Assembly (NCBI GenBank): GCA_964187785.1
Contig: OZ076409.1
Location: forward strand, 4,342,001-4,406,000
Source: Amphiscolops sp. MND2022
Lineage: Eukaryota
Reading direction: 5' to 3'
Length of the DNA stretch: 64,000 nt
Below are positions 9,171 through 64,000 of the stretch, piece by piece (positions within the stretch are counted from its first letter, which is position 1; every line of letters starts with the position of its first letter). The position numbers were made by a program, and so were the translations under genes. The notes under the pieces were generated by a model. The model made no database searches and was not told the origin of the DNA. It worked only from the letters and a program-made list of their open reading frames with translations.

Positions 9171-9254
9171 TATGCTGAACTTTTCGTTATATATTTAATT
9201 CAGTTTTGTCCTTCAAAAGGTTGTTTTCAGCTAGTTTGTTCAATTCGAAAGTAA

Positions 9255-33200: not shown

Positions 33201-33562
33201 AAGCCATTTTGTTACTTTCGAATATCTTGAAAGTTCAGATGTACATATTTCAGGTAATTTTCCTTATTCTGAATGATTCGCAGAGTTTGTGTGTAAGTCA
33301 TGACAGGGCCCGGGTTACGCTCGATATCTGCAGACAACAAAAGTAGAAGAAGCACAAGTTTTAGGATCTCTGGATTTTCATAAAAGAACCCAAATTTATT
33401 TCTTTCATGAATAGAAGATGACCTCAACAAAGAGTAGGTTTCAGCAATATTCAAGGAATTTATGCTAACAGTATTAGCTCTAAGTAGAGCAAAGAGAAAA
33501 AGCAGCATGGTACAGAGAAACCTAAACTGCATGTATGAATATTCATCAGACATCCTCAACAC
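30248..33562 (-). pseudogene. LINE ORF2 (2A-like peptide, APE endonuclease, RT), several frameshifts/stops
   Basis: DIERNPGP; AITETW, GGGIL, MGDYNID, HIDYI, TDH (APE); NYRPIT, QFGFR, IDLSKAFDSV, GVPQGTVLGPILF, YADD, KYLGIIID (RT). Confidence 0.95.
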
Positions 33563-33580
33563 TGAACAAATGGAAAATTA

Positions 33581-34459: not shown

Positions 34460-34789
34460 TGTTTAACAGTGTTGAAGGTGTATAATTTAACAGTACATCA
34501 ATAGTTGTTGACAAACAAAATGAGTGATAAAACTTTTGTTGACAAACAAGAAAATGAAAGATCAATAAAAGTAGATAGATTGACAGCTAAATATGGTAAT
34601 AGAGTGAAATAAGAAAGCAATTTTAACCGTCTGCACCCTACGAATTCTTTGTTTCATACTTAAAATTTCTTCAGATATTCTCAAAGAGGTTGAGCATTTG
34701 TTTCTAGATCTGTAGAACACTGTTCTAAGAGCCCAATTCAGTTGTTTCTCTAAAGAAAGTAAAAGAGCACTACTGATGTCCGTTAAAAG

Positions 34790-36104: not shown

Positions 36105-36523
36105 GTTAAAAGAAGGTTACAATATTCAAAATGACTTAGGACAAGAGCATGAAGCAGCACTTTTAAACATTTTTTGGGTAGGTTGTTGCGTATTGTTTGA
36201 ATTGCTTTTTTGCCAAGGGCCATTTTTTTAAGCACACTTTTAACTTGATATTCGAAAGTTAGTTTATTGTCGATGATAATGCCTAAGGCGGGCGGAATCT
36301 CCGATGTGTAGTTGTGGCAAGAGTGAAGAGACTGCAGAACATTTCTTTCTGGCATGTGGTCTATACCAAGACCTCATATCTGAAGACATTGACTCAATGA
36401 ATCTCCTAGACCCTGAAGAATGCAGTACCATTGTCGACTACATCTCAATCTCTCATCAATAAATCCTAACTTAACTTTATCCAACTCTCAATGCTCTCTT
36501 TGTACTATTTGTACGTTGAACAC

Positions 36524-36924
36524 GGTAGGGTAATTTTGGATCAAATTTTTGTGTGAGCGAAAAGCGAGATCGAATTGTTCCGTTTTTGCAAGGTTTTTGC
36601 TCCTGTAAAGCGGTTGAAATATTTTAGGTACTTTCCCCACCTCATACGGGATCATATACGGTTTATGCACGCTCGTCCTCACCGTTCTCGCTAGGTCTTC
36701 GCTCCTGTTCGACCTCGCTTAGCAAGATGGGAAAATAAGCGGCCCCAAGGGGCCGCGGGGCATTAGAGGAAATGGGGGCACATCCGACGGCCAAAAACAT
36801 TGTTATTTGAAAATTTAAGTGTTTGAAACCTTGATTCGATCTCATTATCGTTGACCTTTTTACTTCGATTTCAGTGACAGTAAGCATATTCGCGCAAATT
36901 CATTCGATTCAAACGCCCACTGCC
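36524..36924. mobile_element. MITE, MULE-like
   Basis: GG..CC ends, imperfect TIR, flanks GTTGAACAC / GTTGAACGC (9 bp, 1 mismatch); homologous to 15178-15862. Confidence 0.75.
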
Positions 36925-37540
36925 GTTGAACGCCCTCCCGCAGTATATATTACCTTTGGTTTACCCTAAAGTTCATTATTGTAACTGCGGCTCTGCTAAA
37001 TTAAAGTGCTGAATTTCTTTCATGCAGACCTCGGTGCCATCTCCCCCTAACTTGGCAATGCACTTGATGGCGATTTTGCACACGCTTGATGACAATGATC
37101 TATGTTATCTGAGAGAGGAAAAGAAACAAAAAATCGCCGAAACTGAAAAGACATTGACATGTTGGATTAGATGAATATTGGGTACATGAAATCTTCAACA
37201 TCGAGCTCCTCATGAGAAGTAAACTCATGACGTGGCTGATCACCAGAAGCCGTGGCCGACAGATCAGAAATGAAACTGTGAATATGTAAATATACTCATT
37301 GTAAAACGATGGAAAATATATATTTCACTGTCATAAGAAAGCATACTCGTTTCAGTGAAGCAAATGGAATGGCTCCAAAATTATCTTCAAGACTTCAATT
37401 GGAAGCGTCGTCACTCAGGCGAATCAAGATTTCGCAGCAAGCCTTATCTCAAATCATTGGGGTTCAAATCATATCCCTTGTTTTTTATTCCCGTGCTCTC
37501 AATAATATGGTAGCTGTGACAAAATGATTTTCGATCAGAT

Positions 37541-37852
37541 ATGAATAATTTGTTGGTGAGATGCTCCGTGAAAGGCATTTCTGATGCAACTGTCAGATGG
37601 GGTATCAAAAGCGCCAACTCTGTCAATTTACTTCCAGTTGCAACAAAACTGGAGAGTTTGCACAAAATGAAATGGGCAGAAGTTCAACAGTTAGCAGAAG
37701 AAGCTGTTAATCCAAATGATATAAAGTTGCATCCTTTGTATGATGACCGTCCTGACAAAGTTCTAGCAGTTGGGCTGAACTATCGAGATCATTGCATGGA
37801 GCAAAATATCGTAGTTGAAAAACTACCGAAAGATCCCCTCATATTCAATAAG
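37541..37852 (+). CDS. FAHD2: Coding exon of a fumarylacetoacetate hydrolase domain-containing protein 2-like gene
   Basis: [19 protein letters not shown]...PKDPLIFNK matches the FAH-family GxNYxxH..P..P..F.K signature; TTTCGATCAG acceptor 2 nt before the ATG; GTTAGT donor at 37853. Downstream exons not found in window. Confidence 0.85.
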
Positions 37853-38019
37853 GTTAGTATTTTGTTAGCTTGAATTTGGCGCTGTCGAGTTTTTCTCATT
37901 TTGTAGATGTTGGGCAATATGGATGTCTTTTCTTACAATTTAAAGGTCCATTAAAAAAATTACGCGTCTTTACGTTATCCCTCTATTTTTCTCTTTATTT
38001 TTTAATTTCTTAAATACAA

Positions 38020-40601: not shown

Positions 40602-41584
40602 AGCTGTGATCGACCTCATTTTAGTTGAGCTGTATGGTCGTTTTAGGTTTTATGGTGTCACTTTTGGTATACTTTTGCTCTCGACATTTTTTTATTCCGG
40701 GAAAATCAGGGTCAAGAAGATCACTGCTCCGTTTTTTTTCTGCTTTTTTCTCCCGCTGCTTCTCGCGTTCCGATTTCTCCAAAAGCTGCTTCGGTAGACC
40801 TGCACAAACTGAAGTAGCTGTAGTAACTTTCACACAGATGTTAGTCAACTCGAACAACGTATGCCTCGTCAACTGACATGCCACAGGGTAGAAGTGGGTG
40901 ACAGGGCTTTGAACAGTGCCTATAACAATGACTAGGTTCAACTCCCTCAAACGGCACATGCGTTGTTTCTTTCAGTAAGTCCCATTGTTTTTCTTTCTAG
41001 AAAGGAAGAGTTTACGAGGTTGTCAAACAATTCGTTAGACTCGTCACTGGATTCTTCGAGCATAGGATCATTGTTGACTTTCACAACTCCGGTCCATTCT
41101 TGTCGTTTCCATTGCATTTTAACACTCGTACCTCCTTTTATTTCCAAAACGTCGGATAGAACAATAAATTTTTTGTACTGTACTTCTTGTTGTCCCTAAT
41201 ATCTTCAATAGCGTTATTATTCTTAAACGGTTTCCAATAAACTGATTGCCAATCAACTTGCGTAGATGCAGCCATTGCAAAATCTTAAATATATAATAGA
41301 TCAAGCTGAGAAGTAAGTAAAGATGAAGAAATATTTTGTTCATTACTGTGATCAAAAGGTCTTGAAATGGTTCGTCCTGATGAACAAATTCTTCTGTTTC
41401 CTAGCGTGTAATTCGTCTTCACTGTGATGATTCAGTGAAATATTCATTCTCGATGAAGTATTATGTTCATTGATTTTTTCCAAGATGTTTCAATACATTC
41501 TTTTTTAGTTGTTTGTGCAGATTTTTTCTGTAAATTTCAAATGTGCAGAATTTTGAAAGCTAATCCTTTTCTCAGTCGACTTCA
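40602..41584 (-). pseudogene. Second copy of the 5' part of the RepHel gene (truncated)
   Basis: Near-identical to 61307-62290 (ORFs 40621/61396, 40947/61652, 41119/61824). Confidence 0.85.
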
Positions 41585-42413
41585 TTTGTTTGAGTGTGCT
41601 CTTTTGATTGGACAGTGTGATGAGTGACGTCATTTCTGAAAGCTGACCGACCGACAAAGGGAGAGCTAGTTCTCAATACTTTTGGTAGTGCTCTTATTTT
41701 TATGTTACGTCATACATGTATCAAGAAATCATGAGTTAAAGTTTGTTCACTGAGATGAACATGGCCAATAAGAGATTGAAATCATCGATCGTTAAACAGC
41801 CACGCCGTGCAGTCGAAGATAGCTAAAATCATTAACAAAAATCAAAAACATCAAAGGCCCAACTTAAAAAAAAACGAATTGTTCACTGTGCACCAGTCTT
41901 CACAAAACTTCAATTTACTTCAGAGTCTTGAACAGAGCAAGAACAATATTGGGCGAATCTCTTTCGGTGTTTGATTCCACCTTACAATAGTACTAGACGT
42001 GTACGGTTGAACGGAGAGAGTCAAGAGAAAGAAAAGTGTTAAGAAAAGAAAGTTACTTACGTGATTGGAGAAGGATCGTCTTCAGTCGGGTGTTGCTTGA
42101 TAGGTTAATTAGTGGTTGATGATGTTCAAGAATATGGTAGTGTTGTTATTACATAAATGGTCGCACATATTCCAATTGAAATGTAAAATTTTCCTTGGCT
42201 TTTTTCACATTTTCCTAAAATCCTACTTAGATTTCATGTCAACCTCCTAACTGCTCACTCAGTGGCTCATTTAGAAAAACTCTACCAGGTAGAAAAAAAT
42301 GCAATTAGTTATCTACCTTTCCAAAATTCATTCTACCTGCTGATTTTGTTGTCAATAAGAACAGAAATTACCGATAATATGAGATTAATAACAAGAGTAT
42401 TTTGAGTTTAAAT

Positions 42414-42461
42414 TGTGGTGAATATCCGAAGTCTCACAAGGACCACACACTATTCACCACA
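42414..42461 (-). ncRNA. Conserved stem-loop just 3' of the OB-like gene (present in every array unit)
   Basis: 11-bp perfect outer stem TGTGGTGAATA/TATTCACCACA enclosing TGTGT-GGTC-CTTGTGA-GACT-TCGG; same core as 58109-58156 and 58177-58226. Confidence 0.6.
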
Positions 42462-45400
42462 GCAGCGCTGAATGGAAGCTAGTTTTAAAGGATGCCGATC
42501 ATTCTGTAGTGGTACCACTGTGCTAGCTGCTCTGTGGAAAGGCAGTTGCTGGCGCGATGCTGCATATGTGGAACTTTTTGTTCTCAACAGCAACCCTCTT
42601 GTCAATTGCAGGCTTGAACCATCCTTGGATGAAGCCTTGGGACCCGTTCACACTTGCAATCAATTTCTCAACAGCGGCGTCTAACTCAAACCTATCGAGA
42701 TTTTCATTGTCACCCTTAAGGCAACGAGCAGTCGAGGTGACAAAGACATTGGTGAGGGCGTTTGAATTCACTCGGAAAACATCACCGACATTGTTTATTT
42801 CCGTGGTGAGCTCGGGGCACGTGAAGGCAAGGGAGATAGCCCAGGTTCTGTCCTGGTTTGTTTCGAGGCGCGGGCATGGATCGTGGTAAGTCTGCCCGTC
42901 ACAAAGCCTAGATAGACAGACACTTTCGGCAACCAATGCGGAGTCTAGCTTAAGGGCTTCCGTGGTGAAGAGAAAACCGCCGTAGTTGCTGTTCTCCACG
43001 TCGAATGGCGGCGGAACGGAAACATTAGTCGGAGCGGCAATCGGTACAAAGGGCTCATTCGTTGTCACTAACATTGTTTGGCGCCGTGACAAATGGCCAA
43101 TCAGCTCGGGTTTCAGTAGATTTAGCTGTGTCCCGTACCAAAGTACGCAGCATATCTTGAAAGTTTCCTCGATTCCTCCGAATTTTCAGAAAATAGGGCG
43201 TACCAGCATGAAGAACCTACTGCATTGCGGAGCTGTAGTATTACATTCTTTCTTTTTTAGTTGTTTGTGCAGAATTTTTCTGCAAATTTCAAATATGCAG
43301 AATTTTGAAAGCTAATCCTTTTCTCAGTCGACTTCATTTGTTTGAGTGTGCTCTTTTGATTGGACAGTGTGATGAGTGACGTCATTTCTGAAAGCTGAAC
43401 GACCGACAAAGGGAGAGCTAGTTCTCAATAATTTTGGTAGTGCTCTCAATTTTATGTTACGTCATACATGTATTAAGAAATCATGAGTTAAAGTTTGTTC
43501 ACTGAGATGAACATGGCCAATAAGAGATTAAAATCATCGATCGTTAAACAGCCACACCGTGCAGTCGAAGATAGCTAAATTCATTAACAAAAATCAAAAA
43601 CATCAAAGGCCCAACTAAAAAACGAATTGTTCACTGTGCACCAGTCTTCACAAGACTTCAATTTACTTCAGAGTCTTGAACAGAGCTAGAACATTATTGG
43701 GCGAATCTCTTTCGGTGTTTGATTCCACCTTACAATAGTACTAGACGTGTACGGTTGAACGGAGAGAGTAAAGAGAAAGAAAAGTGTTAGGAAAAGAAAG
43801 TTACTTACGTGATTGGAGAAGGATCGTCTTCAGTCGGTTGTTGCTTGATAGGTTAATTAGTGGTTAATGATGTTCAAGAATGTGGTACTGTTGTTATTAC
43901 ATATATGGTCGCACATATTCCAATTGAAATGTAAAATTTACCTTGGCTTTTTTTTACATTTTCCTAAAATCCTACTTAGATTTCATGTCAACCTCCTAAC
44001 TGCTCACTCAGTGGCTCATTTAAAAAAACTGTACCAGGTAGAAAAAAATGCAATTAGTTATCTACCTTTCCAAAATTCATTCTACCTGCTGATTTTGTTG
44101 TCAATAAGAACACAAATTACCCTTAATATGATATTAATAAGAGTATTTTAATTTTAAATTGTGGTGAATATCCGAAGTCTCACAAAGACCACACACTATT
44201 CACCACAACAGCGCTGAATGGATGCTAGTTTTAAAGGATGTCGATCATTCTGTAGTGGTACCACTGTGGTAGCTGCTCTTTGGAAAGGGCAGTTGCTGGC
44301 GCGATGCTGCATATGTGGAACTTTTTGTTCTCAACAGCAACCCTCTTGTCAATTGCAGGGTTGAACCATCCTTGGATGGTGAAGCCTTGGAACCCGTTCA
44401 CACTTGCAATCAATTTCTCAACAGCGGCGTCTAACTCGAACTTCGAGTTTTTCATTGTCGCCCTTAAGGCAACGAGCAGTCGGGGTGACAAAGACATTGG
44501 TGAGGGCGTTTGAATTCACTCGGAAAACATCACCGACATTGTTTGTTTCCGTGGTGAGCTCGGGGCACGTGAAGGCAAGGGAGATAGCCCAGGTTCTGTC
44601 CTGGTTTGTTTCGAGGCGCGGGCATGGATCGTGGTAAGTCTGCCCGTCACAAAGCCTAGATAGACAGACACTTTCGGCAACCAATGCGGAGTCTAGCTTA
44701 AGGGCTTTCGTGGTAAAGAGAAAACCGCCGTAGTTGCTGTTCTCCACGTCGAATGGCGGCGGAACGGAAACATTAGTCGGAGCGGCAATCGGTACAAAGG
44801 GCTCATTCGTTGTCACTAACATTGTTTGGCGCCGTGACAAATGGCCAATCAGCTCGGGCTTCAGTAGATTTAGCTGTGTCCCCGTACCAAAGTACGCTGC
44901 ATATCTTGAAAGTTTCCTCGATTCCTCCGAATTTTCAGAAAACAGGGCGTAACAGCATGAAGAACTTACTGCATTGAGGAGCTGTAGTATTACATTCTTT
45001 CTTTTTTAGTTGTTTGTGCAGAATTTTTCTGCAAATTTCAAATATGCAGAATTTTCAAAGCCAAGCCTTTTCTCAGTCGACTTCATTCGTTTGAGTGTGC
45101 TCTTTTGATTGGACAGTGTGATGAGTGACGTCATTTCTGAAAGCTGAACGACCGACAAAGGGAGAGCTAGTTCTCAATAATTTTGGTAGTGCTCTCAATT
45201 TTATGTTACGTCATACATGTATTAAGAAATCATGAGTTAAAGTTTGTTCACTGAGATGAACATGGCCAATAAGAGATTGAAATCATCGATCGTTAAACAG
45301 CCACGCCGTGCAGTCGAAGATAGCTAAAATCATTAACAAAAATCAAAAACATCAAAGGCCCAACTAAAAAAAAACGAATTGTTCACTGTGCACCAGTCTT

Positions 45401-48400
45401 CACAAAGCTTCAATTTACTTCAGATTCTTGAACAGAGCAAGAACAATATTGGGCGATTCTCTTTCGGTGTTTGATTCCACCTTACAATAGTACTAGACGT
45501 GTATGGTTAAACGGAGAGTCAAGAGAAAGAGAAGTGTTAAGAAAAGAAAGTTACTTACGTGATTGGAGAAGGATCGTCTTCAGTCGGGTTTTGCTTGATA
45601 GGTTAATTAATGGTTAATGATGTTCAAGAATGTGGTAGTGTTGTTAATACATAAATGGTCGCACATATTCCAATTGAAATGTAAAATTTACCTTGGCTTT
45701 TTTTACATTTTCCTAAAATCCTACTTAGATTTCATGTCAACCTCCTAACTGCTCACTCAGTGGCTCATTTAAAAAAACTGTACCAGGTAGAAAAAAATGC
45801 AATTAGTTATCTACCTTTCCAAAATTCATTCTACCTGCTGATTTTGTTGTCAATAAGAACACGAATTACCCATAATATGATATTAATAAGAGTATTTTAA
45901 TTTTAAATTGTGGTGAATATCCGAAGTCTCACAAAGACCACACACTATTCATCACAACAGCGCTGAATGGATGCTAGTTTTAAAGGATGCCGATCATTCT
46001 GTAGTGGTACCACTGTGGTAGCTGCTCTGTGGAAAGGGCAGTTGCTGGCGCGATGCTGCATATGTGGAACTTTTTGTTCTCAACAGCAACCCTCTTGTCA
46101 ATTGCAGGGTTGAACCATCCTTGGATGGTGAAGCCTTGGGATCCGTTCACACTTGCAATCAATTTCTCAACAGCGGCGTCTAACTCGAACTTCGAGTTTT
46201 TCATTGTCGCCCTTAAGGCAACGAGCAGTCGGGGTGACAAAGACATTGGTGAGGGCGTTTGAATTCACTCGGAAAACATCACCGACATTGTTTGTTTCCG
46301 TGGTGAGCTCGGGGCACGTGAAGGCAAGGGAGATAGCCCAGGTTCTGTCCTGGTTTGTTTCGAGGCGCGGGCATGGATCGTGGTAAGTCTGCCCGTCACA
46401 AAGCCTAGACGGACAGACACTTTCGGCAACCAATGCGGAGTCTAGCTTAAGGGCTTTCGTGGTAAAGAGAAAACCGCCGTAGTTGCTGTTCTCCACGTCG
46501 AATGGCGGCGGAACGGAAACATTAGTCGGAGCGGCAATCGGTACAAAGGGCTCATTCGTTGTCACTAACATTGTTTGGCGCCGTGACAAATGGCCAATCA
46601 GCTCGGGCTTCAGTAGATTTAGCTGTGTCCCCGTACCAAAGTACGCTGCATATCTTGAAAGTTTCCTCGATTCCTCCGAATTTTCAGAAAATAGGGCGTA
46701 CCAGCATGAAGAACCTACTGCATTGCGGAGCTGTAGTATTACATTCTTTCTTTTTTAGTTGTTTGTGCAGAATTTTTCTGCAAATTTCAAATATGCAGAA
46801 TTTTCAAAGCTAAGCCTTTTCTCAGTCGACTTCATTCGTTTGAGTGTGCTCTTTTGATTGGACAGTGTGATGAGTGACGTCATTTCTGAAAGCTGAACGA
46901 CCGACAAAGGGAGAGCTAGTTCTCAATAATTTTGGTAGTGCTCTCAATTTTATGTTACGTCATACATGTATCAAGAAATCATGAGTTAAAGTTTGTTCAC
47001 TGAGATGAACATGGCCAATAAGAGATTAAAATCATCGATCGTTAAACAGCCACACCGTACAGTCGAAGATAGCTAAATTCATTAACAAAAATCAAAAACA
47101 TCAAAGGCCCAACTAAAAAAAAACGAATTGTTCACTGTGCACCAGTCTTCACAAAGCTTCAATTTACTTCAGATTCTTGAACAGAGCAAGAACAATATTG
47201 GGCGATTCTCTTTCGGTGTTTGATTCCACCTTACAATAGTACTAGACGTGTATGGTTAAACGGAGAGTCAAGAGAAAGAGAAGTGTTAAGAAAAGAAAGT
47301 AACTTACGTGATTGGAGAAGGATCGTCTTCAGTCGGGTGTTGCTTGATAGGTTAATTAGTGGTTAATGATGTTCAAGAATGTGGTAGTGTTGTTATTACA
47401 TAAATGGTCGCACATATTCCAATTGAAATGTAAAATTTACCTTGGCTTTTTTTACATTTTCCTAAAATCCTACTTAGATTTCATGTCAACCTCCTAACTG
47501 CTCACTCAGTGGCTCATTAAAAAAAACTGTACCAGGTAGAAAAAAAATGCAATTAGTTATCTACCTTTCCAAAATTCATTCTACCTGCTGATTTTGTTGT
47601 CAATAAGAACATAAATTACCGATAATATGAGATTAATAAGAGTATTTTAAGTTTAAATTGTGGTGAATAGCCGAAGTCTCACAAGGACCACACACTATTC
47701 ACCACAACAGCGCTGAATGGAAGCTAGTTTTAAAGGATGGCGATCATTCTGTAGTGGTACCACTGTGCTAGCTGCTCTGTGGAAAGGGCAGTTGCTGGCG
47801 CGATGCTGCATATGTGGAACTTTTTGTTCTCAACAGCAACCCTCTTGTCAATTGCAGGCTTGAACCATCCTTGGATGGTGAAGCCTTAGGACCCGTTCAC
47901 ACTTGCAATCAATTTCTCAACAGCGGCGTCTAACTCGAACCTATCGAGTTCTTAATTGTTGCCCTTAAGGCAACGAGCAGTCGGGGTGACAAAGACATTG
48001 GTGAGGGCGTTTGAATTCACTCGGAAAACATCACCGACATTGTTTGTTTCCGTGGTGAGCTCGGGGCACGTGAAGGCAAGGGAGATAGCCCAGGTTTTGT
48101 CCTGGTTTGTTTCGAGGCGCGGGCATGGATCGTGGTAAGTCTGCCCGTCACAAAGCCTAGACGGACAGACACTTTCGGCAACCAATGCGGAGTATAGCTT
48201 AAGGGCTTTCGTGGTAAAGAGAAAACCGCCGTAGTTGCTGTTCTCCACGTCGAATGGCGGCGGAACGGAAACATTAGTCGGAGCGCCAATCGGTACCAGG
48301 GGCTCATTCGTTGTCACTAACATTGTTTGGCCCCGTGACAAATGGCCAATCAGCTCGGGCTTCAGTAGATTTAGCTGTGTCCCCGTACCAAAGTACGCTG

Positions 48401-51235
48401 CATATCTTGAAAGTTTCCTCGATTCCTCCGAATTTTCAGAAAACAGGGCGTAACAGCATGAAGAACTTACTGCATTGAGGAGCTGTAGTATTACATTCTT
48501 TCTTTTTTAGTTGTTTGTGCAGAATTTTTCTGCAAATTTCAAATATGCAGAATTTTCAAAGCTAAGCCTTTTCTCAGTCGACTTCATTCGTTTGAGTGTG
48601 CTCTTTTGATTGGACAGTGTGATGAGTGACGTCATTTCTGAAAGCTGAACGACCGACAAAGGGAGAGCTAGTTCTCAATAATTTTGGTAGTGCTCTCAAT
48701 TTTATATTACGTCATACATGTATCAAGAAATCATGAGTTAAAGTTTGTTCACTGAGATGAACATGGCCAATAAGAGATTAAAATCATCGATCGTTAAACA
48801 GCCACACCGTACAGTCGAAGATAGCTAAATTCATTAACAAAAATCAAAAACATCAAAGGCCCAACTAAAAAAAACGAATTGTTCACTGTGCACCAGTCTT
48901 CACAAAGCTTCAATTTACTTCAGATTCTTGAACAGAGCAAGAACAATATTGGGCGACTCTCTTTCGGTGTTTGATTCCACCTTACAATAGTACTAGACGT
49001 GTATGGTTAAACGGAGAGTCAAGAGAAAGAGAAGTGTTAAGAAAAGAAAGTTACTTACGTGATTGGAGAAGGCTCGTCTTTAGTCGGGTGTTGCTTGATA
49101 GGTTAATTAGTGGTTAATGATGTTCAAGAATGTGGTAGTGTTGTTATTACATAAATGATCGCACATATTCCAATTGAAAAGTAAAATTTACCTTGGCTTT
49201 TTTTTACATTTTCATAAAATCCTACTTAGATTTCATGTCAACCTCCTAACTGCTCACTCAGTGGCTCATTTAAAAAAACTGTACCAGGTAGAAAAAAATG
49301 CAATTAGTTATCTACCTTTCCAAAATTCATTCTACCTGCTGATTTTGTTGTCAATGAGAACAGAAATTACCGATAATATGAGATCAATAACAAGAGTATT
49401 TTAAGTTTAAATTGTGGTGAATATCCGAAGTCTCACAAAGACCACACACTATTCACCACAACAGCGCTGAATGGATGCTAGTTTTAAAGGATGCCGATCA
49501 TTCTGTAGTGGTACCACTGTGGTAGCTGCTCTGTGGAAAGGGCAGTTGCTGGCGCGATGCTGCATATGTGGAACTTTTTGTTCTCAACAGCAACCCTCTT
49601 GTCAATTGCAGGTTTGAACCATCCTTGGATGGTGAAGCCTTGGGACCCCTTCACACTTGCAATCAATTTCTAAACAGCGGCGTCTAACTCGAACCTATCG
49701 AGTTCTTAATTGTTGCCCTTAAGGCAACGAGCAGTCGGGGTGACAAAGACATTGGTGAGGGCGTTTGAATTCACTCGGAAAACATCACCGACATTGTTTG
49801 TTTCCGTGGTGAGCTCGGGGCACGTGAAGGCAAGGGAGATAGCCCAGGTTCTGTCCTGGTTTGTTTCGAGGCGCGGGCATGGATCGTGGTAAGTCTGCCC
49901 GTCACAAAGCCTAGACGGACAGACACTTTCGGCAACCAATGCGGAGTATAGCTTAAGGGCTTTCGTGGTAAAGAGAAAACCGCCGTAGTTGCTGTTCTCC
50001 ACGTCGAATGGCGGCGGAACGGAAACATTAGTCGGAGCGGCAATCGGTACCAGGGGCTCATTCGTTGTCACTAACATTGTTTGGCCCCGTGACAAATGGC
50101 CAATCAGCTCGGGCTTCAGTAGATTTAGCTGTGTCCCCGTACCAAAGTACGCTGCATATCTTGAAAGTTTCCTCGATTCCTCCGAATTTTCAGAAAACAG
50201 GGCGTAACAGCATGAAGAACTTACTGCATTGAGGAGCTGTAGTATTACATTCTTTCTTTTTTAGTTGTTTGTGCAGAATTTTTCTGCAAATTTCAAATAT
50301 GCAGAATTTTCAAAGCTAAGCCTTTTCTCAGTCGACTTCATTCGTTTGAGTGTGCTCTTTTGATTGGACAGTGTGATGAGTGACGTCATTTCTGAAAGCT
50401 GAACGACCGACAAAGGGAGAGCTAGTTCTCAATAATTTTGGTAGTGCTCTCAATTTTATGTTACGTCATACATGTATCAAGAAATCATGAGTTAAAGTTT
50501 GTTCACTGAGATGAACATGGCCAATAAGAGATTAAAATCATCGATCGTTAAACAGCCACACCGTACAGTCGAAGATAGCTAAATTCATTAACAAAAATCA
50601 AAAACATCAAAGGCCCAACTAAAAAAAAAACGAATTGTTCACTGTGCACCAGTCTTTACAAAGCTTCAATTTACTTCAGATTCTTGAACAGAGCAAGAAC
50701 AAAATTGAGCGATTCTCTTTCGGTGTTTGATTCCACCTTACAATAGTACTAGACGTGTATGGTTAAACGGAGAGTCAAGAGAAAGAGAAGTGTTAAAAGA
50801 AAGTTACTTACGTGATTGGAGAAGGATCGTCTTCAGTCGGGTGTTGCTTGATAGGTTAATTAGTGGTTAATGATGTTCAAGAATGTGGTAGTGTTGTTAT
50901 TACATAAATGGTCGCACATATTCCAATTGAAATGTAAAATTTATCTTGGCTTTTTTTACATTTTCCTAAAATCCTACTTAGATTTCATGTCAACATCCTA
51001 ACTGCTCACTCAGTGGCTCATTAAAAAAAACTGTACCAGGTAGAAAAAAATGCAATTAGTTATCTACCTTTCCAAAATTCATTCTACCTGCTGATTTTGT
51101 TGTCAATGAGAACAGAAATTACCGATAATATGAGATCAATAACAAGAGTATTTTAAGTTTAAATTGTGGTGAATATCCGAAGTCTCACAAGGACCACACA
51201 CTATTCACCACAACAGCGCTGAATGGAAGCTAGTT

Positions 51236-51850
51236 TTAAAGGATGCCGATCATTCTGTAGTGGTACCACTGTGGTAGCTGGTCTGTGGAAAGGGCAGTTG
51301 CTGGCGCGATGCTGCATATGTGGAACTTTTTGTTCTCAACAGCAACCCTCTTCTCGTCAATTGCAGGCTTGAACCATCCTTGGATGGTGAAGCCTTGGGA
51401 CCCGTTCACACTTGCAATCAATTTCTCAACAGCGGCGTCTAAGTCGATCCTATCGAGTTTTTCATTGTCGCCCTTAAGGCAACGAGCAGTCGGGGTGACC
51501 AAGACATTGGTGAGTGCGTTTGAATTCACTCGAAAAACATCACCGACATTGTTCATTTCCGTGGTGAGCTCGGGGCACGTGAAGGCAAGGGAGATAGCCC
51601 AGGTTCTGTCCTGGTTTGTTTCGAGGCGCGGGCATGGATCGTGGTAAGTCTGCCCGTCACAAAGCCTAGACGGACAGACACTGTCGGCAACCAATGCGGA
51701 GTCTAGCTTAAGGGCTTTCGTGGTAAAGAAAAAACTGCCGTAGTTGCTGTTCTCCACGTCGAATGGCGGCGGATCGGAAACATTAGTCGGAGCGGCAATC
51801 GGTACCAGGGGCTCATTCGTTGTCACTAACCTTGTTTGGCCCCGTGACAA
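51236..51850 (-). pseudogene. 5'-truncated copy of the OB-like gene, open for 204 aa (near-identical twin at 52984-53598)
   Basis: ORF track; best-preserved C-terminal half (CPSRLCDGQ..CP..GFTIQGWFKP..HICSI). Confidence 0.7.
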
Positions 51851-54737
51851 ATGGCCAATCAGCTCGGGCTTCAGTAGATTTAGCTGTGTCCCGTACCAAA
51901 GTACGCAGCATATCGTGAAAGTTTCCTCGATTCCTCCGAATTTTCAGAAAACAGGGCGTACCAGCATGAAGAACCTACTGCATTGAGGAGCTGTAGTATT
52001 ACATTCTTTTTTAGTTGTTTGTGCAGAATTTTTCTGAAAATTTCAAATATGCAGAATTTTCAAAGCTAAGCCTTTTCTCAGTCGACTTCATTCGTTTGAG
52101 TGTGCTCTTTTGATTGGACAGTGTGATGAGTGACGTCATTTCTGAAAGCTGAACGACCGACAAAGGGAGAGCTAGTTTTCAATAATTTTGGTAGTGCTCT
52201 CAATTTTATGTTACGTCATACATGTATCAAGAATCATGAGTTAAAGTTTGTTCACTGAGATGAACATGGCCAATAAGAGATTAAAATCATCGATCGTTAA
52301 ACAGCCACACCGTACAGTCGAAGATAGCTAAATTCATTAACAAAAATCAAAAACATCAAAGGCCCAACTAAAAAAAACGAATTGTTCACTGTGCACCAGT
52401 CTTCACAAAACTTCAATTTACTTCAGAGTCTTGAACAGAGCAAGAACAATATTGGGCGAATCTCTTTCGGTGTTTGATTCCACCTTACAATAGTACTAGA
52501 CGTGTACGGTTGAACGGAGAGAGTCAAGAGAAAGAAAAGTGTTAAAAGAAAGTTACTTACGTGATTGGAGAAGGATCGTCTTCAGTCGGGTGTTGCTTGA
52601 TAGGTTAATTAGTGGTTAATGATGTTCAAGAATGTGGTAGTGTTGTTATTACATAAATGGTCGCACATATTCCAATTGAAATGTAAAATTTATCTTGACT
52701 TTTTTTACATTTTCCTAAAATCCTACTTAGATTTCATGTCAACATCCTAACTGCTCACTCAGTGGCTCATTAAAAAAACTGTACCAGGTAGAAAAAAATG
52801 CAATTAGTTATCTACCTTTCCAAAATTCATTCTACCTGCTGATTTTGTTGTCAATGAGAACAGAAATTACCGATAATATGAGATCAATAACAAGAGTATT
52901 TTAAGTTTAAATTGTGGTGAATATCCGAAGTCTCACAAGGACCACACACTATTCACCACAACAGCGCTGAATGGAAGCTAGTTTTAAAGGATGCCGATCA
53001 TTCTGTAGTGGTACCACTGTGGTAGCTGGTCTGTGGAAAGGGCAGTTGCTGGCGCGATGCTGCATATGTGGAACTTTTTGTTCTCAACAGCAACCCTCTT
53101 CTCGTCAATTGCAGGCTTGAACCATCCTTGGATGGTGAAGCCTTGGGACCCGTTCACACTTGCAATCAATTTCTCAACAGCGGCGTCTAAGTCGATCCTA
53201 TCGAGTTTTTCATTGTCGCCCTTAAGGCAACGAGCAGTCGGGGTGACCAAGACATTGGTGAGTGCGTTTGAATTCACTCGAAAAACATCACCGACATTGT
53301 TCATTTCCGTGGTGAGCTCGGGGCACGTGAAGGCAAGGGAGATAGCCCAGGTTCTGTCCTGGTTTGTTTCGAGGCGCGGGCATGGATCGTGGTAAGTCTG
53401 CCCGTCACAAAGCCTAGACGGACAGACACTGTCGGCAACCAATGCGGAGTCTAGCTTAAGGGCTTTCGTGGTAAAGAGAAAACTGCCGTAGTTGCTGTTC
53501 TCCACGTCGAATGGCGGCGGATCGGAAACATTAGTCGGAGCGGCAATCGGTACCAGGGGCTCATTCGTTGTCACTAACCTTGTTTGGCCCCGTGACAAAT
53601 GGCCAATCAGCTCGGGCTTCAGTAGATTTAGCTGTGTCCCGTACCAAAGTACGCAGCATATCGTGAAAGTTTCCTCGATTCCTCCGAATTTTCAGAAAAC
53701 AGGGCGTACCAGCATGAAGAACCTACTGCATTGAGGAGCTGTAGTATTACATTCTTTTTTAGTTGTTTGTGCAGAATTTTTCTGAAAATTTCAAATATGC
53801 AGAATTTTCAAAGCTAAGCCTTTTCTCAGTCGACTTCATTCGTTTGAGTGTGCTCTTTTGATTGGACAGTGTGATGAGTGACGTCATTTCTGAAAGCTGA
53901 ACGACCGACAAAGGGAGAGCTAGTTTTCAATAATTTTGGTAGTGCTCTCAATTTTATGTTACGTCATACATGTATCAAGAATCATGAGTTAAAGTTTGTT
54001 CACTGAGATGAACATGGCCAATAAGAGATTAAAATCATCGATCGTTAAACAGCCACACCGTACAGTCGAAGATAGCTAAATTCATTAACAAAAATCAAAA
54101 ACATCAAAGGCCCAACTAAAAAAAAACGAATTGTTCACTGTGCACCAGTCTTCACAAAACTTCAATTTACTTCAGAGTCTTGAACAGAGCAAGAACAATA
54201 TTGGGCGAATCTCTTTCGGTGTTTGATTCCACCTTACAATAGTACTAGACGTGTACGGTTGAACGGAGAGAGTCAAGAGAAAGAAAAGTGTTAAGAAAAG
54301 AAAGTTACTTACGTGATTGGAGAAGGATCGTCTTCAGTCGGGTGTTGCTTTATAGGTTAATTAGTGGTTAATGATGTTCAAGATAGTGGTAGTGTTGTTA
54401 TTACATAAATGATCGCACATATTCCAATTGAAAAGTAAAATTTACCTTGGCTTTTTTTTACATTTTCATAAAATCCTACTTAGATTTCATGTCAACCTCC
54501 TAACTGCTCACTCAGTGGCTCATTAAAAAAAACTGTACCAGGTAGAAAAAAATGCAATTAGTTATCTACCTTTCCAAAATTCATTCTACCTGCTGATTTT
54601 GTTGTCAATGAGAACAGAAATTACCGATAATATGAGATCAATAACAAGAGTATTTTAAGTTTAAATTGTGGTGAGTATTCGAAGTCTCACAAGGACCACA
54701 CACTATTCACCACAACAGCGCTGAATGGAAGCTAGTT

Positions 54738-55730
54738 TTAAAGGATGCCGATCATTCTGTAGTGGTACCACTGTGGTAGCTGCTCTGTGGAAAGGGCAGT
54801 TGCTGGCGCGATGCTGCATATGTGGAACTTTTTGTTCTCAACAGCAACCCTCTTCTCGTCAATTGCAGGCTTGAACCATCCTTGGATGGTGAAGCCTTGG
54901 GACCCGTTCACACTTGCAATCATTTTCTCAACAGCGGCGTCTAACTCGAACCTATCGAGTTTTTAATTGTCGCCTTTAAGGCAACAAGCAGTCGGGGTGA
55001 CAACGACATTGGTGAGGGCGTTTGAATTCACTCGGAAAACATCACCGACATTGTTTATTTCCGTTGTGAGCTCGGGGCACGTGAAGGCAAGGGAGATAGC
55101 CCAGGTTCTGTCCTGGTTTATTTCGAGGCGCGGTCATGGATCGTTGTAAGTCTGCCCGTCACAAAGCCTAGACGGACAGACACTTTCGGCAACCAATGCG
55201 GAGTCTAGCTTAAGGGCTTTCGTGGTAAAGAGAAAACCGCCGTAGTTGCTCTTCTCCACGTCGAATGGCGGCGGAACGGAAACATTAATCGGAGCTGCAA
55301 TCGGTACCAGGGGCTCATTCGTTGTCACTAACCTTGTTTGGCCCCGTGACAAATGGCCAATCAGCTCGGGCTTCAGTAGATTTAGCTGTGTCCCCGTACC
55401 AAAGTACGCAGCATATCTTGAAAGTTTCCTCGATTCCTCCGAATTTTCAGAAAACAGGGCGTAGCAGCATGAAGAACCTACTGCATTGAGGAGGAAGAAT
55501 CTATATTTCTCAACCTCCAATTTCCTGGACGCCTGCCCATAATTTTTAGTTGTTCTGGAGTAGTTGATCTTCTTGGCGGGCTGTGCTGCGTAGAAAAACG
55601 TGACTGAGAGTTTAGAGAGTCTCGGAAGATTGTCTTGACCTTCGAACGTCGATGGATCTGTGGTGGTGAACTTCGCTGCTTTTGATTGAGCACTTGACAA
55701 ATTCAGTTTAGCTTCTAGGAAGCTCGGCAT
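54738..55730 (-). pseudogene. Full-length accessory gene (~330 aa), putative RPA70-like OB-fold/zinc-ribbon ssDNA-binding protein; in-frame stops
   Basis: ATG at 55730; frame continues through TGA at 55134 (TGC in other copies) to TAA at 54738; beta-rich pattern with a Cys cluster. The OB-fold call is inference from context, since Helitrons are known to carry RPA-like genes. Confidence 0.55.
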
Positions 55731-56777: not shown

Positions 56778-57438
56778 TTAAGAATCTTGTTCACGGAAGG
56801 AACGAATAATTCTACCAGGCGATAAATTTCGCGAAGTTTGAGTTTGATGAACCATATCATTAACTTTGAACGCAGAATTAGTTAATTTCAAATCGAAGTA
56901 ATGGAAAAAGTTATCCTTTAAGAGGCGATTCATTTTATTGTCAAGTAAAGTATCATATTCATTTGGGGGCATTTGACTCTGCTGACTTACTGCTCCGGGC
57001 TCATTTTTTTCATCAGTCTTCCTCCTTCTACACAAAACAACAACGTAACGAATATCTCTTGCCTTGGCTTTTCGTTCTAAACCCCTCAAAATGTGAATAA
57101 TGCTTTCTGGGGACTCAGGCTTATGATGCAATGGATTCAGTCATGGGGCAACTGTAAGGCTATTCATAATAACATCCATATTTAACACAATCGTGGAGGA
57201 ATTCGAATTCAGAGCCTGCTGAAACAAATTTTTAGCCTCTTTTTCCCAATTAATGTGATTAAACTTAGCTCCTTGTTTCGCAAAAATTTTGAAATCGATA
57301 TGAGGGGGTGTTCCAGTCCAGTGAGATGATCCAGGGGTTGCGAACAGTTGGGAGTGTCGCAGTTGCAAGCAACCAGGGGCAGCTTCTGAATAGAAACGAG
57401 GTTGCTGGCTCCGACGACGACAATTTTTGGAGCTTCCA
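56778..57438 (-). pseudogene. SGNH/GDSL hydrolase-like accessory gene (frameshift and in-frame TGA)
   Basis: KIVVVGASNL (block I), KQGAK (II), DVIMNSL (III), NDMVHQ (V) across ORFs 57209, 57141 and 56778. Confidence 0.6.
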
Positions 57439-57614
57439 TTTGATCTGAAGACAAATACAAAGGTTGATGTTTTTCGCATAAGTGGAAGTAATCATTGTTA
57501 CATGAATGAAAACAGTGCAAGTAACAAGCCCTGAAAGACTATGCTACAACTAGGCTAACGACCTGTGGCTAATAGTCAAAGTATCCCTAGCAGGCAACTC
57601 CATATATTAGATCC

Positions 57615-57848
57615 CTTCTTTCTTCATCGTCGTCCGTTGTCCCTTTTATTACAAATAATACGAATATAAATACTACATATGCTCATCTTCTTTCCTCATC
57701 GTCGTCCGTTGTCCCTTTTATCACAAATATTATGAGTATAAATAGTACATATGCTAATCTTCTTTCATCGTCGTCCGTTGTCCTTTTGATTACAAATATT
57801 ACGAATGAAAATAGTACATATGCTCATCTTTCTTCTTCGTCGTCGGCT
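57615..57848. repeat. Minisatellite, about 3.5 copies of a ~70-bp unit
   Basis: CATCGTCGTCCGTTGTCC...ACAAATA...TACATATGCTCATCTT repeated at 57625, 57697, 57766 and (degenerate) 57835. Confidence 0.9.
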
Positions 57849-58108
57849 GTCTCTTACTGCAAACAATTTAATTCGAAAACTACTGCGGTTGCTGTTACTC
57901 TGAGGTCTGTATTATCTTTCTTCATCTCAACCTTCTAGCTCATCTCAGGGAAAACCAAATGTAAGAGTAGGAAAAGAGTTGAATTCAGTCAGTCATTAAG
58001 TCTAGTTTTAGTTCTTTTCTGTCAAAAAAGTCGAAAAGTCTTGTTGAAAAAAGTCAGAATCGGAGTCAATTGTCCGTGCAGTGATAGTTTTCTTTTAATT
58101 TATGGGTT

Positions 58109-58226
58109 GGTGTATGAACTCCGAAGACTCACAAGGTCTACACAAGCTCAGACACCGTTATTAGATTTTCAGTAGTTTGTGCATGAACTTCGAAGACTCA
58201 CAAGGTCCACACAACATCATACACAA
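58109..58226 (-). ncRNA. Two tandem copies of the conserved stem-loop 3' of the RepHel gene
   Basis: 58109-58156 and 58177-58226 share the core TGTGT-RGAC-CTTGTGA-GTCT-TCGR with different but self-complementary outer stems. Confidence 0.6.
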
Positions 58227-58431
58227 TAGATTCTTCTTCATCATCCACTAAGCTGTCACTTCTGCTGTTCTTGATTTGATGGTAACTACCAGTAATAGAC
58301 GTTAACCTACCTTCCTAGATTTTACGCACCAGTTTTAAGAGGCAAATGGCTCAAAAGGGCAACATACCTCGAAGTTTACATTACATGATTTTTTACTCTA
58401 ACTAGTACGACCGCAAACACAAAAGTAGAGG

Positions 58432-61400
58432 TTAGTTTTTCTCGTTCATTTTTTCCTGAAAAAGAGCTGTCATGTCGTTTAATGTTTTAAGATTGGCGCG
58501 GCGCTGATACATCGCATTATGTAAGTCTCGCTCTAAGTCTACACGGGAACTATCGGAGTCAAAGTTACAAACAAACGCGGCAATGGCCCAAGGTAATCGA
58601 TGCGATACGTTTGTAAAGTCTGATCCATTTCCGCTGTTATGTCCCGAGAGACGTACTAAAAAGGCGCGTTTAGTTTGACCAACGTAAAAGGTTTGGAGCG
58701 AGCACTGGTTGACACTGAATAATAAGTACACAAAACCATTAGGTGTTTCAGGGATTGTTTCATTAAAAGGTACGTAAGACGTTCTTGAAACGTTGATGGG
58801 TTCTACAATAGACCCTGACCTTGAATTTCTTCTTATTTTATCAAGTAAAGAAAACATGTGTTCTTCTTTTCGATCCCGTTGTTGGAAAAGTGTTTTAATG
58901 GCGCTCAACGTAGCTGTTTTATCTCCGACAAAAGTTAGTTTTTTCAATTGCTTAACACGACTAACGATGACGAAATTTTGCGCCGTCATCCACAAGGCAT
59001 AGCTTTTATCCGTTGCCGAGATGGACGTCGCCAGCTTGTCAAACGTATCACCCATTAAATTGTGAGTTGTCAGAGCAACAAAGTTCATTAGGGGAATTTG
59101 GGTTCGTCTCACTGAGTTTTACTTGAAAGCTTGAACAAACCCAGTTTGCCTGGTCAAACTCACAGTCCCCCAGGTAAGGTATTCTCCACGTTGCAACATC
59201 TAAGGAGTGATGCTTACCTCACCACCGCTACTGTCTGGGACGTAAATTGTTACCGAGTCACCTGTAGGAACGTCATGAAGAACCCCGACCTGTCCTTGAG
59301 ACAACTGCTCAGATTTCAAATTGACAGTGACCCTAATCAAAGCTTTTGAGTAAACAATTAGCTGCTTCGGTTCGTTTACCTTGTCGTTCAGATGGTCGGT
59401 GCTCGCAATTATTGTCGAATCAATTAAACCTTGCGTTTTTTGTTATTTAGTTCAGCCAAAATTTTCCTAGTTTTTTATTTTCAATTTTTTGAACCTGCAC
59501 ATTGTGGGCATTCGCGGGATTCATGGAGACATCAGCATGTTCTTCTTTACCAGCTGCGTAAGATGTTAAATACCTTGAAGCGACTGATTTGCAAACTTTA
59601 AGAACATTTAAACTGGACTTGGTAATGCTCCACAAAGCTACATTAAGAGGTGACATGTGCTCTCCTTTTTGGGCAGCGTACATATACTTACCAGCCAACA
59701 AAGTAGACGTTACCTGCAAAACGTTGAAATACCCCGGCATTGCCTCAGCCAAGCCAAGTTCTTGCAATGCTTCCAGGGCTTCTCTGGAATGGGGCTGGTG
59801 GAACTCTTTGTACCACGGAACGTGACTTTGCGGGTAAGCAGGAAAGCGACATTTACGTTCCCCATTTAACCATAACTTTTTAAAGCAATGTCCCTTTTCA
59901 CAGTCATGCGTTTGAACACGAACACAATCATCGTACAACCTACCTGCGTGTTCTTCACTATTCAGTCCCAAAATTGATTTCGAACTATTTTTTGAAATGG
60001 TGCAGGACATGTTGCACATTGAATTTTTTCCAAGATGTCTTCGTCTGAAGGTTTCAACCAAAAAAAAATGTGGTAATGCTGTAAATTAGCGGCAGCACTC
60101 TGGAATTCTGCCCTACCCCACACTTTTAAAATTTCGCCTAAAATGTGTTAGTCAGAGAACCTGAGGTAATCAAGTAAAAGTTCGATGGTTCTGGTCCAAC
60201 ATCGCACAATAATTACCATGTACGCTCGGAGTATTTCTTTTTGCTCTTCTGTTGTTGCGGAACCAAAAAGTTCCTAAATAGCTTGTAAGTAGCAGTACTA
60301 CTTCTGCTACTCCCGGATGTTCTTCTTGATTACAAGTGAATGTTACAAACAAATCAGGTGTTTCAGATGCGCACGCTGTTCCTAACCGGTTTACATGTAC
60401 ATCGCTATCGACACTGTCCATTTTTAAAACACTTTCTGTTGACGTTAGTTGGTGTGGTCTATACTTATCAATAGAACTTGTCTGCAAACCTCTTTTGAAA
60501 AACTGGTTTGCGTGGCATTTTGTCAAAGATAAATTTAAAACGGCATCGATTGCGTGCATGATGTAAGGCAAGCTAGATGATGTCAACAGTGTCCTGTCTT
60601 TAAGTCGTAGCCTTAAGTGTTCATGCAAACCATCATAATCGAATTTGGAATTGGTTTTTTTGTCGTCGTAAACGAAAAATGGCAGAGCTCCGGGAAACGA
60701 GCCGTCTTCTAATTGTTTATAAAAAATGCTGGGAAACAAACAAGCCTCAGGTTGAAGTAAAGGAATTGATCTACCTGGTCAAAACACTACGAAAATTTGA
60801 ATAAATCGTTGGAATTTCTTACCTACATGCTTAGGATATTTCAACCGTTTCATTACCTGACATTCACCATTTAATAAAACGTGCATTGGCACGAATTTCG
60901 AGTCATTGGATAAGTACACAGGTTCGGATTCCTGTGTTCCCGCATCGACAAATAACTCAGGGCAATCGAACTCGTTCATATTTGCTTCTGGGTCTTCTTC
61001 TGGTCTTTTAACAAAGTCCAAGTTAAACACGTTTTCGTGTCCTACAACTGGTTCGTCAACCACAGCTGCTGGGACATCATGTTCTTCGTCGCTGCTGTCG
61101 TTGATGCAGACGGTGTGTTTTTCAGCAGACGGTGTGTTGTCGACCAGAACACGATCGGTGCTATCGCAGAACTCGGTGAAGTGAGTTTTGCAAACAGAGG
61201 CACAGCATTGTTTTTCAGGACAGCGCCACGCAGACTTACGTGTACAAATACCAATGGTGTTTCTGGGAACACTACATTTCTGAAAACTAGTGTTTCTGGG
61301 AACATTAGCTGTGATCGACTTCTTTTTAGTTGAGCTGTATGGTCGTTTTATGTTTTATGGTGTCACTTTTGGTATACTTTTGCTCTCGACATTTTTTATT

Positions 61401-62420: not shown

Positions 62421-64000
62421 ATGTATCAAGAAATCACGAGTTAAAGTTTGTTCACTGAGATGAACATGGCCAATAAGAGATTGAAATCATCGATCGTTAA
62501 ACAGCCACGCCGTGCAGTCGAAGAGCTAAAATCATTAACAAAAATCAAAAACATCAAAGGCCCAACTAAAAAAAAACGAATTGTTCACTGTGCACCAGTC
62601 TTCACAAAACTTCAATTTACTTCAGAGTCTTGAACAGAGCAAGAACAATATTGGGCGAATCTCTTTCGGTGTTTGATTCCACCTTACAATAGTACTAGAC
62701 GTGTACGGTTGAACGGAGAGAGTCAAGAGAAAGAAAAGTGTTAAGAAAAGAAAGTTACTTACGTGATTGGAGAAGGATCGTCTTCAGTCGGGTGTTGCTT
62801 GATAGGTTAATTAGTGGTTAATGATGTTCAAGAATATGGTAGTGTTGTTATTACATAAATGGTCGCACATATTCCAATTGAAATGTAAAATTTTCCTTGG
62901 CTTTTTTCACATTTTCCTAAAATCCTACTTAGATTTCATGTCAACCTCCTAACTGCTCACTCAGTGGCTCATTTAGAAAAACTCTACCAGGTAGAAAAAA
63001 ATGCAATTAGTTATCTACCTTTCCAAAATTCATTCTACCTGCTGATTTTGTTGTCAATAAGAACAGAAATTACCGATAATATGAGATTAATAACAAGAGT
63101 ATTTTGAGTTTAAATTGTGGTGAATATCCGAAGTCTCACAAGGACCACACACTATTCACCACAACAGCGCTGAATGGAAGCTAGTTTTAAAGGATGCCGA
63201 TCATTCTGTAGTGGTACCACTGTGGTAGCTGCTCTGTGGAAAGGGCAGTTGCTGGCGCGATGCTGCATATGTGGAACTTTTTGTTCTCAACAGCAACCCT
63301 CTTGTCAATTGCAGGGTTGAACCATCCTTGGATGGTGAAGCCTTGGGACCCGTTCACACTTGCAATCAGTTTCTCAACAGCGGCGTCTAACTCGAACTTC
63401 GAGTTTTTCATTGTCGCCCTTAAGGCAACGAGCAGTCGGGGTGACAAAGACATTGGTGAGGGCGTTTGAATTCACTCGGAAAACATCACCGACATTGTTT
63501 GTTTCCGTGGTGAGCTCGGGGCACGTGAAGGCAAGGGAGATAGCCCAGGTTCTGTCCTGGTTTGTTTCGAGGCGCGGGCATGGATCGTGGTAAGTCTGCC
63601 CGTCACAAAGCCTAGATAGACAGACACTTTCGGCAACCAATGCGGAGTATAGCTTAAGGGCTTTCGTGGTAAAGAGAAAACCGCCGTAGTTGCTGTTCTC
63701 CACGTCGAATGGCGGCGGAACGGAAACATTAGTCGGAGCGGCAATCGGTACCAGGGGCTCATTCGTTGTCACTAATGGGGTAGAACTGGTAATTGACATT
63801 TCCGTGGGAAGAAAACATTTTGAATCTGAAAAATGAGGAAATTAGAATCTAAACTGTATAAACAGCAGTATGTGCATAAGTACAATAAATTAGAAGTGAA
63901 ATGTACTCGTGATAATTTGATACTGATAATATACTGGAAGTATTTTGATGAATTTTTACGATTTACTGGCGCTGTTATATTCTAATCTGTGCTTTTTCTG

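Follow-up and report, generated by a model that had tools for sequence, protein, structure and literature searches.

A hairpin of about 50 nt that recurs behind two genes of a Helitron-like element is real and under selection. This hairpin, here called motif A, belongs to an uncatalogued, selected family that lies in the gene trailers of a Helitron-like clade with a GIY-YIG domain and that probably acts as RNA. Descriptions of DNA transposons usually centre on the DNA signals at their ends; in the large Helitron-like clade analysed here, at least some families have internal, selected, multi-copy hairpins tied to stop codons and to predicted poly(A) sites. At least two motif families absent from Rfam are added and, if they act as RNA, they would provide a small, directly testable handle on the control of Helitron transposase dose.

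Structure and conservation of motif A

The initial annotation had described three versions of the hairpin on the minus strand, at 42414-42461, 58109-58156 and 58177-58226 of the window (the whole stretch of 64,000 nucleotides that was analysed). All three are present, and each is one single hairpin with fold z values of -4.3, -3.3 and -2.8 relative to shuffles. A covariance model identifies 12 copies in the window, three in the trailer of the RepHel gene and nine behind the OB-fold gene. A missed fourth version at 58339-58370 has a fold z of -3.4, and the core pattern matches the window 11 times, against no match in 100 shuffles. Nine of the 12 copies are near-identical copies of one repeated unit; the version at 42414 is one of these nine, eight of which sit in a tandem array. 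The copies identified by the covariance model, all on the minus strand, are:

58328..58381, minus: first copy of the RepHel trailer, a C.C version (hairpin 58339-58370; 56.2 bits)
58175..58228, minus: middle copy of the RepHel trailer (hairpin 58177-58226; 63.1 bits)
58106..58159, minus: last copy of the RepHel trailer (hairpin 58109-58156; 67.7 bits)
63113..63166, minus: copy behind the OB remnant of the upstream unit
54664..54717, minus: copy behind the OB gene
52910-52963, 51162-51215 and 49410-49463, minus: copies in the tandem array
47656-47709, 45906-45959 and 44157-44210, minus: further copies in the tandem array
42411..42464, minus: copy behind an OB remnant, noted initially (hairpin 42414-42461; also supported by folding)

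Motif A consists of an outer stem of up to ~14 bp, free in sequence but paired, and a fixed core made up of a bulged U, a G-C pair, a U.U, one covarying pair, a G-C pair, a position that is mostly C.C, a C-G pair and the loop CUUNUGA. In a hand list of ten distinct versions the outer stems differ and mostly pair, while the bulged U, G-C, U.U, G-C and C-G are identical in all ten. In an ungapped alignment of 22 distinct copies both sides have changed in 13 of 19 pairs, and covariation is 0.47; shuffles give 0.18 and slid partners no more than 0.15. An alignment of 57 distinct copies, which was made to the covariance model and leans towards it, has both sides changed in 14 of 19 pairs, with covariation of 0.38 compared with 0.15 in shuffles and 0.05-0.10 in slid controls. 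The copies are related and shuffles ignore kinship, and for this reason the slid controls and the ten hand-listed versions were also used. A covariance model and a larger alignment had been proposed at the outset as the check on this motif, and covariation stands above shuffles and slid controls with both 22 and 57 copies.

Conservation leads to the same conclusion. One 35-nt version is 97-100% identical across three loci (L016, L075 and L189) in which four-fold sites are only 40-44% identical, and the similarity drops within a few bases of the hairpin edges. Covariation, together with conservation measured against saturated silent sites, strongly supports a conserved single-strand structure behind two genes. 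Motif A thus combines a conserved structure with conserved loop bases, as is found in 3'-UTR stem-loops that bind a protein.

Several details of the initial description change with the larger sample. The outer stems had been described as differing yet pairing; the outer stems of the three versions on which this was based are partly homologous, and fully different stems are found in other subfamilies. A compensatory T-A/A-T swap had been read in the inner stem, at a pair that is usually a non-pair: this third inner pair is unpaired in 38 of 50 cells, mostly as C.C. The best-covarying inner pair is instead the first, which is paired in 54 of the 57 copies with five pair types. The loop, described as the same in all versions, is indeed fixed as CUUNUGA and is not invariant, as its fourth base varies (U 33, G 7, C 6 and A 2 over the 57 distinct copies). 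This middle base also removes the suggested likeness to an anticodon loop; a tRNA anticodon-loop mimic would have a fixed triplet and a 5-bp stem, and the inner stem of motif A mostly contains a non-pair. Although their outer stems differ, the copies in OB trailers have a conserved palindromic AGCGCT in front of them and a conserved A-rich motif after them (window ~42466-42473, minus strand; L017, L075, L180, L181 and L182).

The carrier element and its other hairpins

Judged by its predicted domains, the carrier is a Helitron-like element with a RepHel protein that includes Rep and PIF1 helicase domains. The element in the window is broken. Its intact relatives have a frame of 2374-2376 aa, and Helitron_like_N and PIF1 score above the Pfam cut-offs in both intact copies, which also have a C-terminal GIY-YIG domain. 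The RepHel C-terminus has 156 genome matches, down to ~33% identity and many with full-length open frames, and a helicase-GIY-YIG profile recovers 395 protein clusters at E up to 1e-30. In the intact relatives RepHel is followed by an SGNH/GDSL-like gene (atlas score 0.94) and then by the OB-fold gene, whose modelled product (pLDDT 85) has its best matches in RPA, CST and RADX at TM-scores of 0.18-0.28. The parts of the element in the window are:

58398..61306, minus: broken RepHel gene, with frameshifts and with residues ~1364-2038 deleted
~58519-58737, minus: C-terminal GIY-YIG domain of the broken RepHel
57615..57855: 72-bp tandem repeat that separates the RepHel trailer from the SGNH-like gene
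56784..57439, minus: broken SGNH/GDSL-like gene, without a hairpin behind it
54762..55730, minus: OB-fold (RPA/CST-like) gene with an internal stop
41498..55493, minus: tandem array of ~1.75-kb units that all combine the 3' part of the OB gene with motif A and the element 3' junction
41993..42010, minus: conserved element 3' junction ending in CTAG (nine copies in the window)

The window also contains the following features:

8038-14904: 2.3-kb three-copy tandem
30248-34462, minus: broken reverse-transcriptase element
35012-36927: nested inverted repeats with 15/22-bp satellites
37520-37873, plus: exon similar to a fumarylacetoacetate-hydrolase-domain gene (no Pfam match)

HLE1 elements are recognised by a 5'-TC and insertion between A and T, and HLE2 elements by terminal inverted repeats and DUF6570. 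In the elements studied here the 3' CTAG is conserved but is usually followed by G, DUF6570 gave no match, and one left end was read. For Sphagnum the literature mentions an HLE2 family with GIY-YIG (PMC11417382), and a fish Helitron that carries an SGNH gene has been published (PMC4021074). In one SGNH-like frame (L016:8776-9435) the Ser of block I and the DxxH motif appear to be kept, and the product may be an active esterase. The block I Ser and the DxxH motif are defining features of SGNH proteins. In several families RepHel starts with an RG-rich peptide (L016:546-620), a further candidate RNA-binding part.

At the 3' junction, ~400 nt past the hairpin of the OB trailer, a 19-mer that ends in CTAG is conserved. 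CTAG is found both at this junction and at the one left end that was read, and the junction recurs between modules of 1.3-2.6 kb (L018:215-240; L017:1971 and 3264; L073:6342 and 8940; L185). This pattern suggests insertion at CTAG and at each other's ends, a likeness to IS91-like insertion. About 50 nt before the junction a conserved block of ~110 nt ends in a splice-donor-like GTAAGT (window 42055-42060, minus strand, and eight further units; L017, L025, L075 and L182). Acceptors are found upstream of RepHel; were the first exon at the far end, only circular or head-to-tail copies could express RepHel. The genome also has clusters of intact RepHel-GIY-YIG elements, dozens in number and from different families (G000:C1:73.4-76.5 Mb, C2:102-103.9 Mb and C3:2.4-3.9 Mb), those of the C1 block all on one strand.

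In related subfamilies the same trailers are filled by a second, bulged hairpin. The core of this sister motif consists of U.G or U-A, then C-G, a G or U bulge, A-U and C-G, followed by one covarying pair and a loop that varies. A descriptor that allows G.U has 68 sense matches, a few of them due to chance, against one antisense match in 401 kb. There are 72 distinct copies, with up to eight per trailer (L073, L074, L184, L190, L061, L063, L194 and L197), and the U.G wobble is present in 54 of the 72, under a descriptor in which G.U was allowed. The sister core is kept across RepHel families that are only ~35% identical. In metagenome sequence it stands four times behind RepHel at L194, and the descriptor detects one copy each at L197 and L198; the proteins of these loci share 33-38% identity with the query. 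No Rfam family matches it. At L205, L206 and L209 the sister pattern matches repeatedly; these matches fall in the coding frame of a different repeat, have no outer stem and were set aside, and seven further non-element matches without a convincing outer stem look like chance.

A third covarying hairpin, D, with a GCA triloop and a 2-nt purine bulge, lies shortly behind the RepHel stop of distant families (L064:1086, L067:1047, L068:1082 and L069:1094), and some intact families have neither A, the sister motif nor D. One locus has only A (L016) and another only the sister motif (L074), while most others have both; at L189, A stands behind RepHel but only the sister hairpin stands behind OB. 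A one-to-one rule, with the same hairpin behind both genes, is contradicted by this free mixing.

Placement behind stop codons and the strand of action

In the 1.07-Gb genome from which the window comes, the exact core pattern of motif A has 98 matches against one in the control; the genome-wide counts (98 and 111 matches, compared with 1 and 3 in controls) come from exact patterns and miss diverged copies. By a hand count, the surroundings of ~70 of the 98 core matches were read, and all but one lie inside element sequence. Both A and the sister hairpin follow RepHel or OB stops at a short distance and in sense orientation, antisense matches being rare (one for A and four for the sister motif). 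Each of the 28 near-clade regions with the RepHel end in view has one or more A or sister hairpins in its RepHel trailer, and no hairpin was found behind the SGNH-like gene in eight SGNH-OB intervals. The hairpin at 58177 had been placed ~205 nt after the RepHel stop. That stop is premature and belongs to a frameshifted, internally deleted copy; the homologous stop of intact copies maps to ~58398-58400.

AATAAA or ATTAAA lies 2-9 nt behind the last motif A of the RepHel trailer in nine of 12 loci, where the local expectation is 3-13%. The remaining three loci have ATTGAA at the hexamer place, and a U-rich tract follows that place in most of the 12. The 12 loci are related and therefore do not represent nine independent events. 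Directly behind the OB-trailer copy no canonical hexamer was found in the subfamily of the window. The corresponding features in the window, with their predicted functions, are:

58094..58099, minus: ATTAAA hexamer 9 nt past the last hairpin, a predicted polyadenylation signal
58021..58060, minus: U-rich tract that probably serves the poly(A) site as its downstream element

The original reading of a structured 3'-UTR RNA (or ssDNA) element is upheld as far as a conserved single-strand structure behind two genes is concerned. Indirect support for a location in a 3'-UTR comes from the orientation of the copies together with the neighbouring polyadenylation hexamer in RepHel trailers. Most of the OB and SGNH start codons inspected have a pyrimidine-AG acceptor upstream, which fits spliced Pol II transcripts. 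The strand evidence for motif A is moderate. It had been proposed that several mismatches are G-U pairs only on the sense strand, and G-U does exceed A-C by 23:4 over 22 copies; over 11 representative versions the ratio is 10:3, which is not significant (p=0.09), and some C.C versions, two in number, fold better on the antisense strand. The sense strand is favoured in 13 of the 22 copies under RNA parameters and in 6 of the 22 under DNA parameters.

An intact core with its own stem was found at one single-copy locus outside any recognisable element (G000:C2:64013698-64013717, minus strand; L179/L262), with a short exon-like frame ~240 nt upstream. In Pfam, PDB, the genome and the protein collection the short frames ahead of this orphan copy gave no useful match, and no recognisable host gene tied to a copy of motif A was found. 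Viral contigs have 65 core matches, which is estimated to be about chance level, none of them with an outer stem (best 22.9 bits). A protein scan of the viral contigs gave five weak helicase matches, the two of which that were checked with the model had no motif match. Motif A was found in none of 12 metagenome loci, some of them short.

Possible readers of the hairpin and comparison with known systems

A free stem with a fixed, partly unpaired core, repeated after stop codons and next to a hexamer, is the anatomy that we infer for a protein-binding site in a 3'-UTR. The explanation that we put first, though only tentatively, is that motif A is a 3'-UTR docking site on the RepHel and OB mRNAs for one protein specific for its sequence and shape, most likely the OB-fold or SGNH-like product of the element itself. 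The outer stem would only present the core, which the protein would read. Bound beside the poly(A) signal, this protein would set the polyadenylation, export or translation of the RepHel and OB mRNAs. Accumulation of the ssDNA-binding protein would then feed back on both mRNAs, and with 2-4 hairpin copies a cooperative response would be possible.

An element-encoded binder is suggested by the near-absence of motif A outside element sequence, by the confinement of intact multi-copy trailers to one OB clade with SGNH, and by the presence of other hairpins at the same place in distant families. The five fully viewed RepHel trailers with 2-4 intact copies all belong to one OB clade (support 92/94) and have an intact SGNH gene; the RepHel tree does not resolve these five. 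The trees include 18 OB and 16 RepHel sequences; one row is partial and several branches are long. In lineages whose OB belongs to other clades, the copies of A are mostly apically deleted. Physical linkage predicts the same association of A with an OB clade and SGNH. Against an element-encoded binder stand two loci with one intact A and a different OB clade (L190 and L235), the free mixing of A and the sister hairpin within elements, the span of the sister motif across very distant OB proteins and the intact single-copy A outside any element; the best matches of the OB model, moreover, are ssDNA binders (RPA, CST and RADX) and not RNA binders. The evidence on the identity of the binder, element or host, is split. 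We also consider, as a rather speculative idea, a phage-like operator system in which the OB (or SGNH-like) protein would read private hairpin arrays beside the RepHel and OB poly(A) signals, and in which the private hairpins (A, sister and D) would be swapped as modules. The type and number of hairpins in each lineage would then tune the dose of transposase.

It is possible that motif A is instead a 3'-UTR RNA element bound by a host protein and concerned with export, localisation, stability or translation of the long RepHel mRNA and the OB mRNA, in the manner of retroelement export and localisation elements. All the RNA-level evidence fits such a binder equally well. Conservation of the sister core across RepHels of ~35% identity and in the three metagenome loci is what would be expected for a conserved host partner, and the intact single-copy A outside any element points the same way, but no copy is tied to a recognisable host gene, the seven non-element matches to the sister pattern look like chance, several intact families have neither motif, and A is absent from all 12 metagenome loci, some of which are short.

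An ssDNA signal on the displaced strand of rolling-circle transposition, serving loading, priming or cutting for the RepHel, GIY-YIG or OB protein, is unlikely. Strand-specific DNA hairpins that are imperfect and contain bulged bases are recognised by HUH transposases and by the integron integrase. Among the products of the element are a Helitron-type Rep region, a helicase, a GIY-YIG domain and an RPA/CST-like protein, and covariation cannot separate RNA from ssDNA. The placement argues against such a signal, as the copies are at least 400 nt from the 3' junction and follow stop codons, with a poly(A) hexamer adjoining, rather than element ends, and skip the SGNH-OB interval. DNA parameters, moreover, favour the opposite strand in 16 of 22 copies, and the sister hairpin holds its U.G wobble in three quarters of its distinct copies (54 of 72, with G.U allowed in the descriptor).

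That the hairpin itself makes the 3' end of the RNA, as a histone-type stem-loop or a small self-cleaving ribozyme, is very improbable. Rfam 15 at the gathering threshold has no match in the window, and at E up to 10 there are only weak C/D-box and miRNA chance matches, none covering the motif structure and none to Histone3 or a ribozyme. The initial statement that the motif does not match hammerhead, HDV, SECIS or histone patterns was therefore correct and extends to all Rfam 15 families, including twister and IRE; the self-cleavage that was also proposed receives no support. Small self-cleaving ribozymes with a multi-helix or pseudoknotted core are rejected, motif A being a single hairpin in which no pseudoknot or kissing partner for the loop exceeds shuffles in any of ten versions, and several tandem copies would be redundant for cleavage. 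A histone 3' stem-loop has a 6-bp stem, a UUUC-type loop, free flanks and no poly(A) signal. Motif A lies near the predicted 3' end, and its small upper hairpin can be drawn in a histone-like way: the second G is invariant, a U-A pair stands at the top, and the loop is UNUG, with U at loop positions 1 and 3. This likeness fails on arm length, loop base, flanks and hexamer: by the column counts the 3' arm is one base short and loop position 4 is a G, the flanks form pairs where free ones would be expected, and the hairpin sits in a long stem, is repeated and is followed by AWTAAA. Neutral duplicated palindromes kept alike by conversion between neighbouring elements, a reading consistent with the head-to-tail clusters, the swapped trailers and the identical copies in several loci, are largely refuted and barely conceivable, given ten versions with different paired stems around one fixed, partly unpaired core, the drop in identity a few bases beyond the hairpin edges and the low slid controls.

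Known systems resemble motif A in part. The canonical Helitron terminal hairpin is a palindrome of 16-20 nt ~11 bp from the 3' end (PMC4067079), and compensatory changes are reported for the terminal stem-loops of HLE1 and HLE2/Helentron elements (PMC13085455). Motif A shares with these the presence of a hairpin in a rolling-circle transposon. It differs in being ~50 nt long, internal, multi-copy and tied to stop codons, and its identity with the terminal hairpin that precedes a CTRR 3' end is rejected, the nearest junction being ~400 nt away. In the sections of the mostly open-access literature that were covered, outside Repbase and Dfam, no description of internal hairpin arrays in Helitrons was found. 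The retroelement CTE/RTE and the localisation signal of the I factor are stem-loops with conserved loops that steer transposon RNA. Motif A is likewise a stem-loop with a conserved loop, for which steering is proposed here, but it has no sequence or Rfam likeness to these signals, and would act on the mRNAs of a DNA transposon, in which RNA is not a transposition intermediate.

In filamentous phages the gene V protein, an OB-fold ssDNA-binding protein, represses the gene II mRNA of an HUH initiator. The logic proposed for motif A, an OB-fold protein acting on the mRNA of an HUH initiator, would be similar by analogy only, as the gene V operator is a bacterial 5' leader site without the structure of motif A. 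The U1A PIE is described as a structured site that takes more than one protein molecule, at a conserved distance from the poly(A) site, and through which the product feeds back on its own mRNA (PMC6884704). As an earlier case of feedback by way of a structured element close to a poly(A) signal, it supports the docking-site explanation; motif A has a different core, without an Rfam match, and serves two transposon genes. In its working motif A would come closest to the U1A PIE or, by analogy, to the gene V operator, and it belongs to neither.
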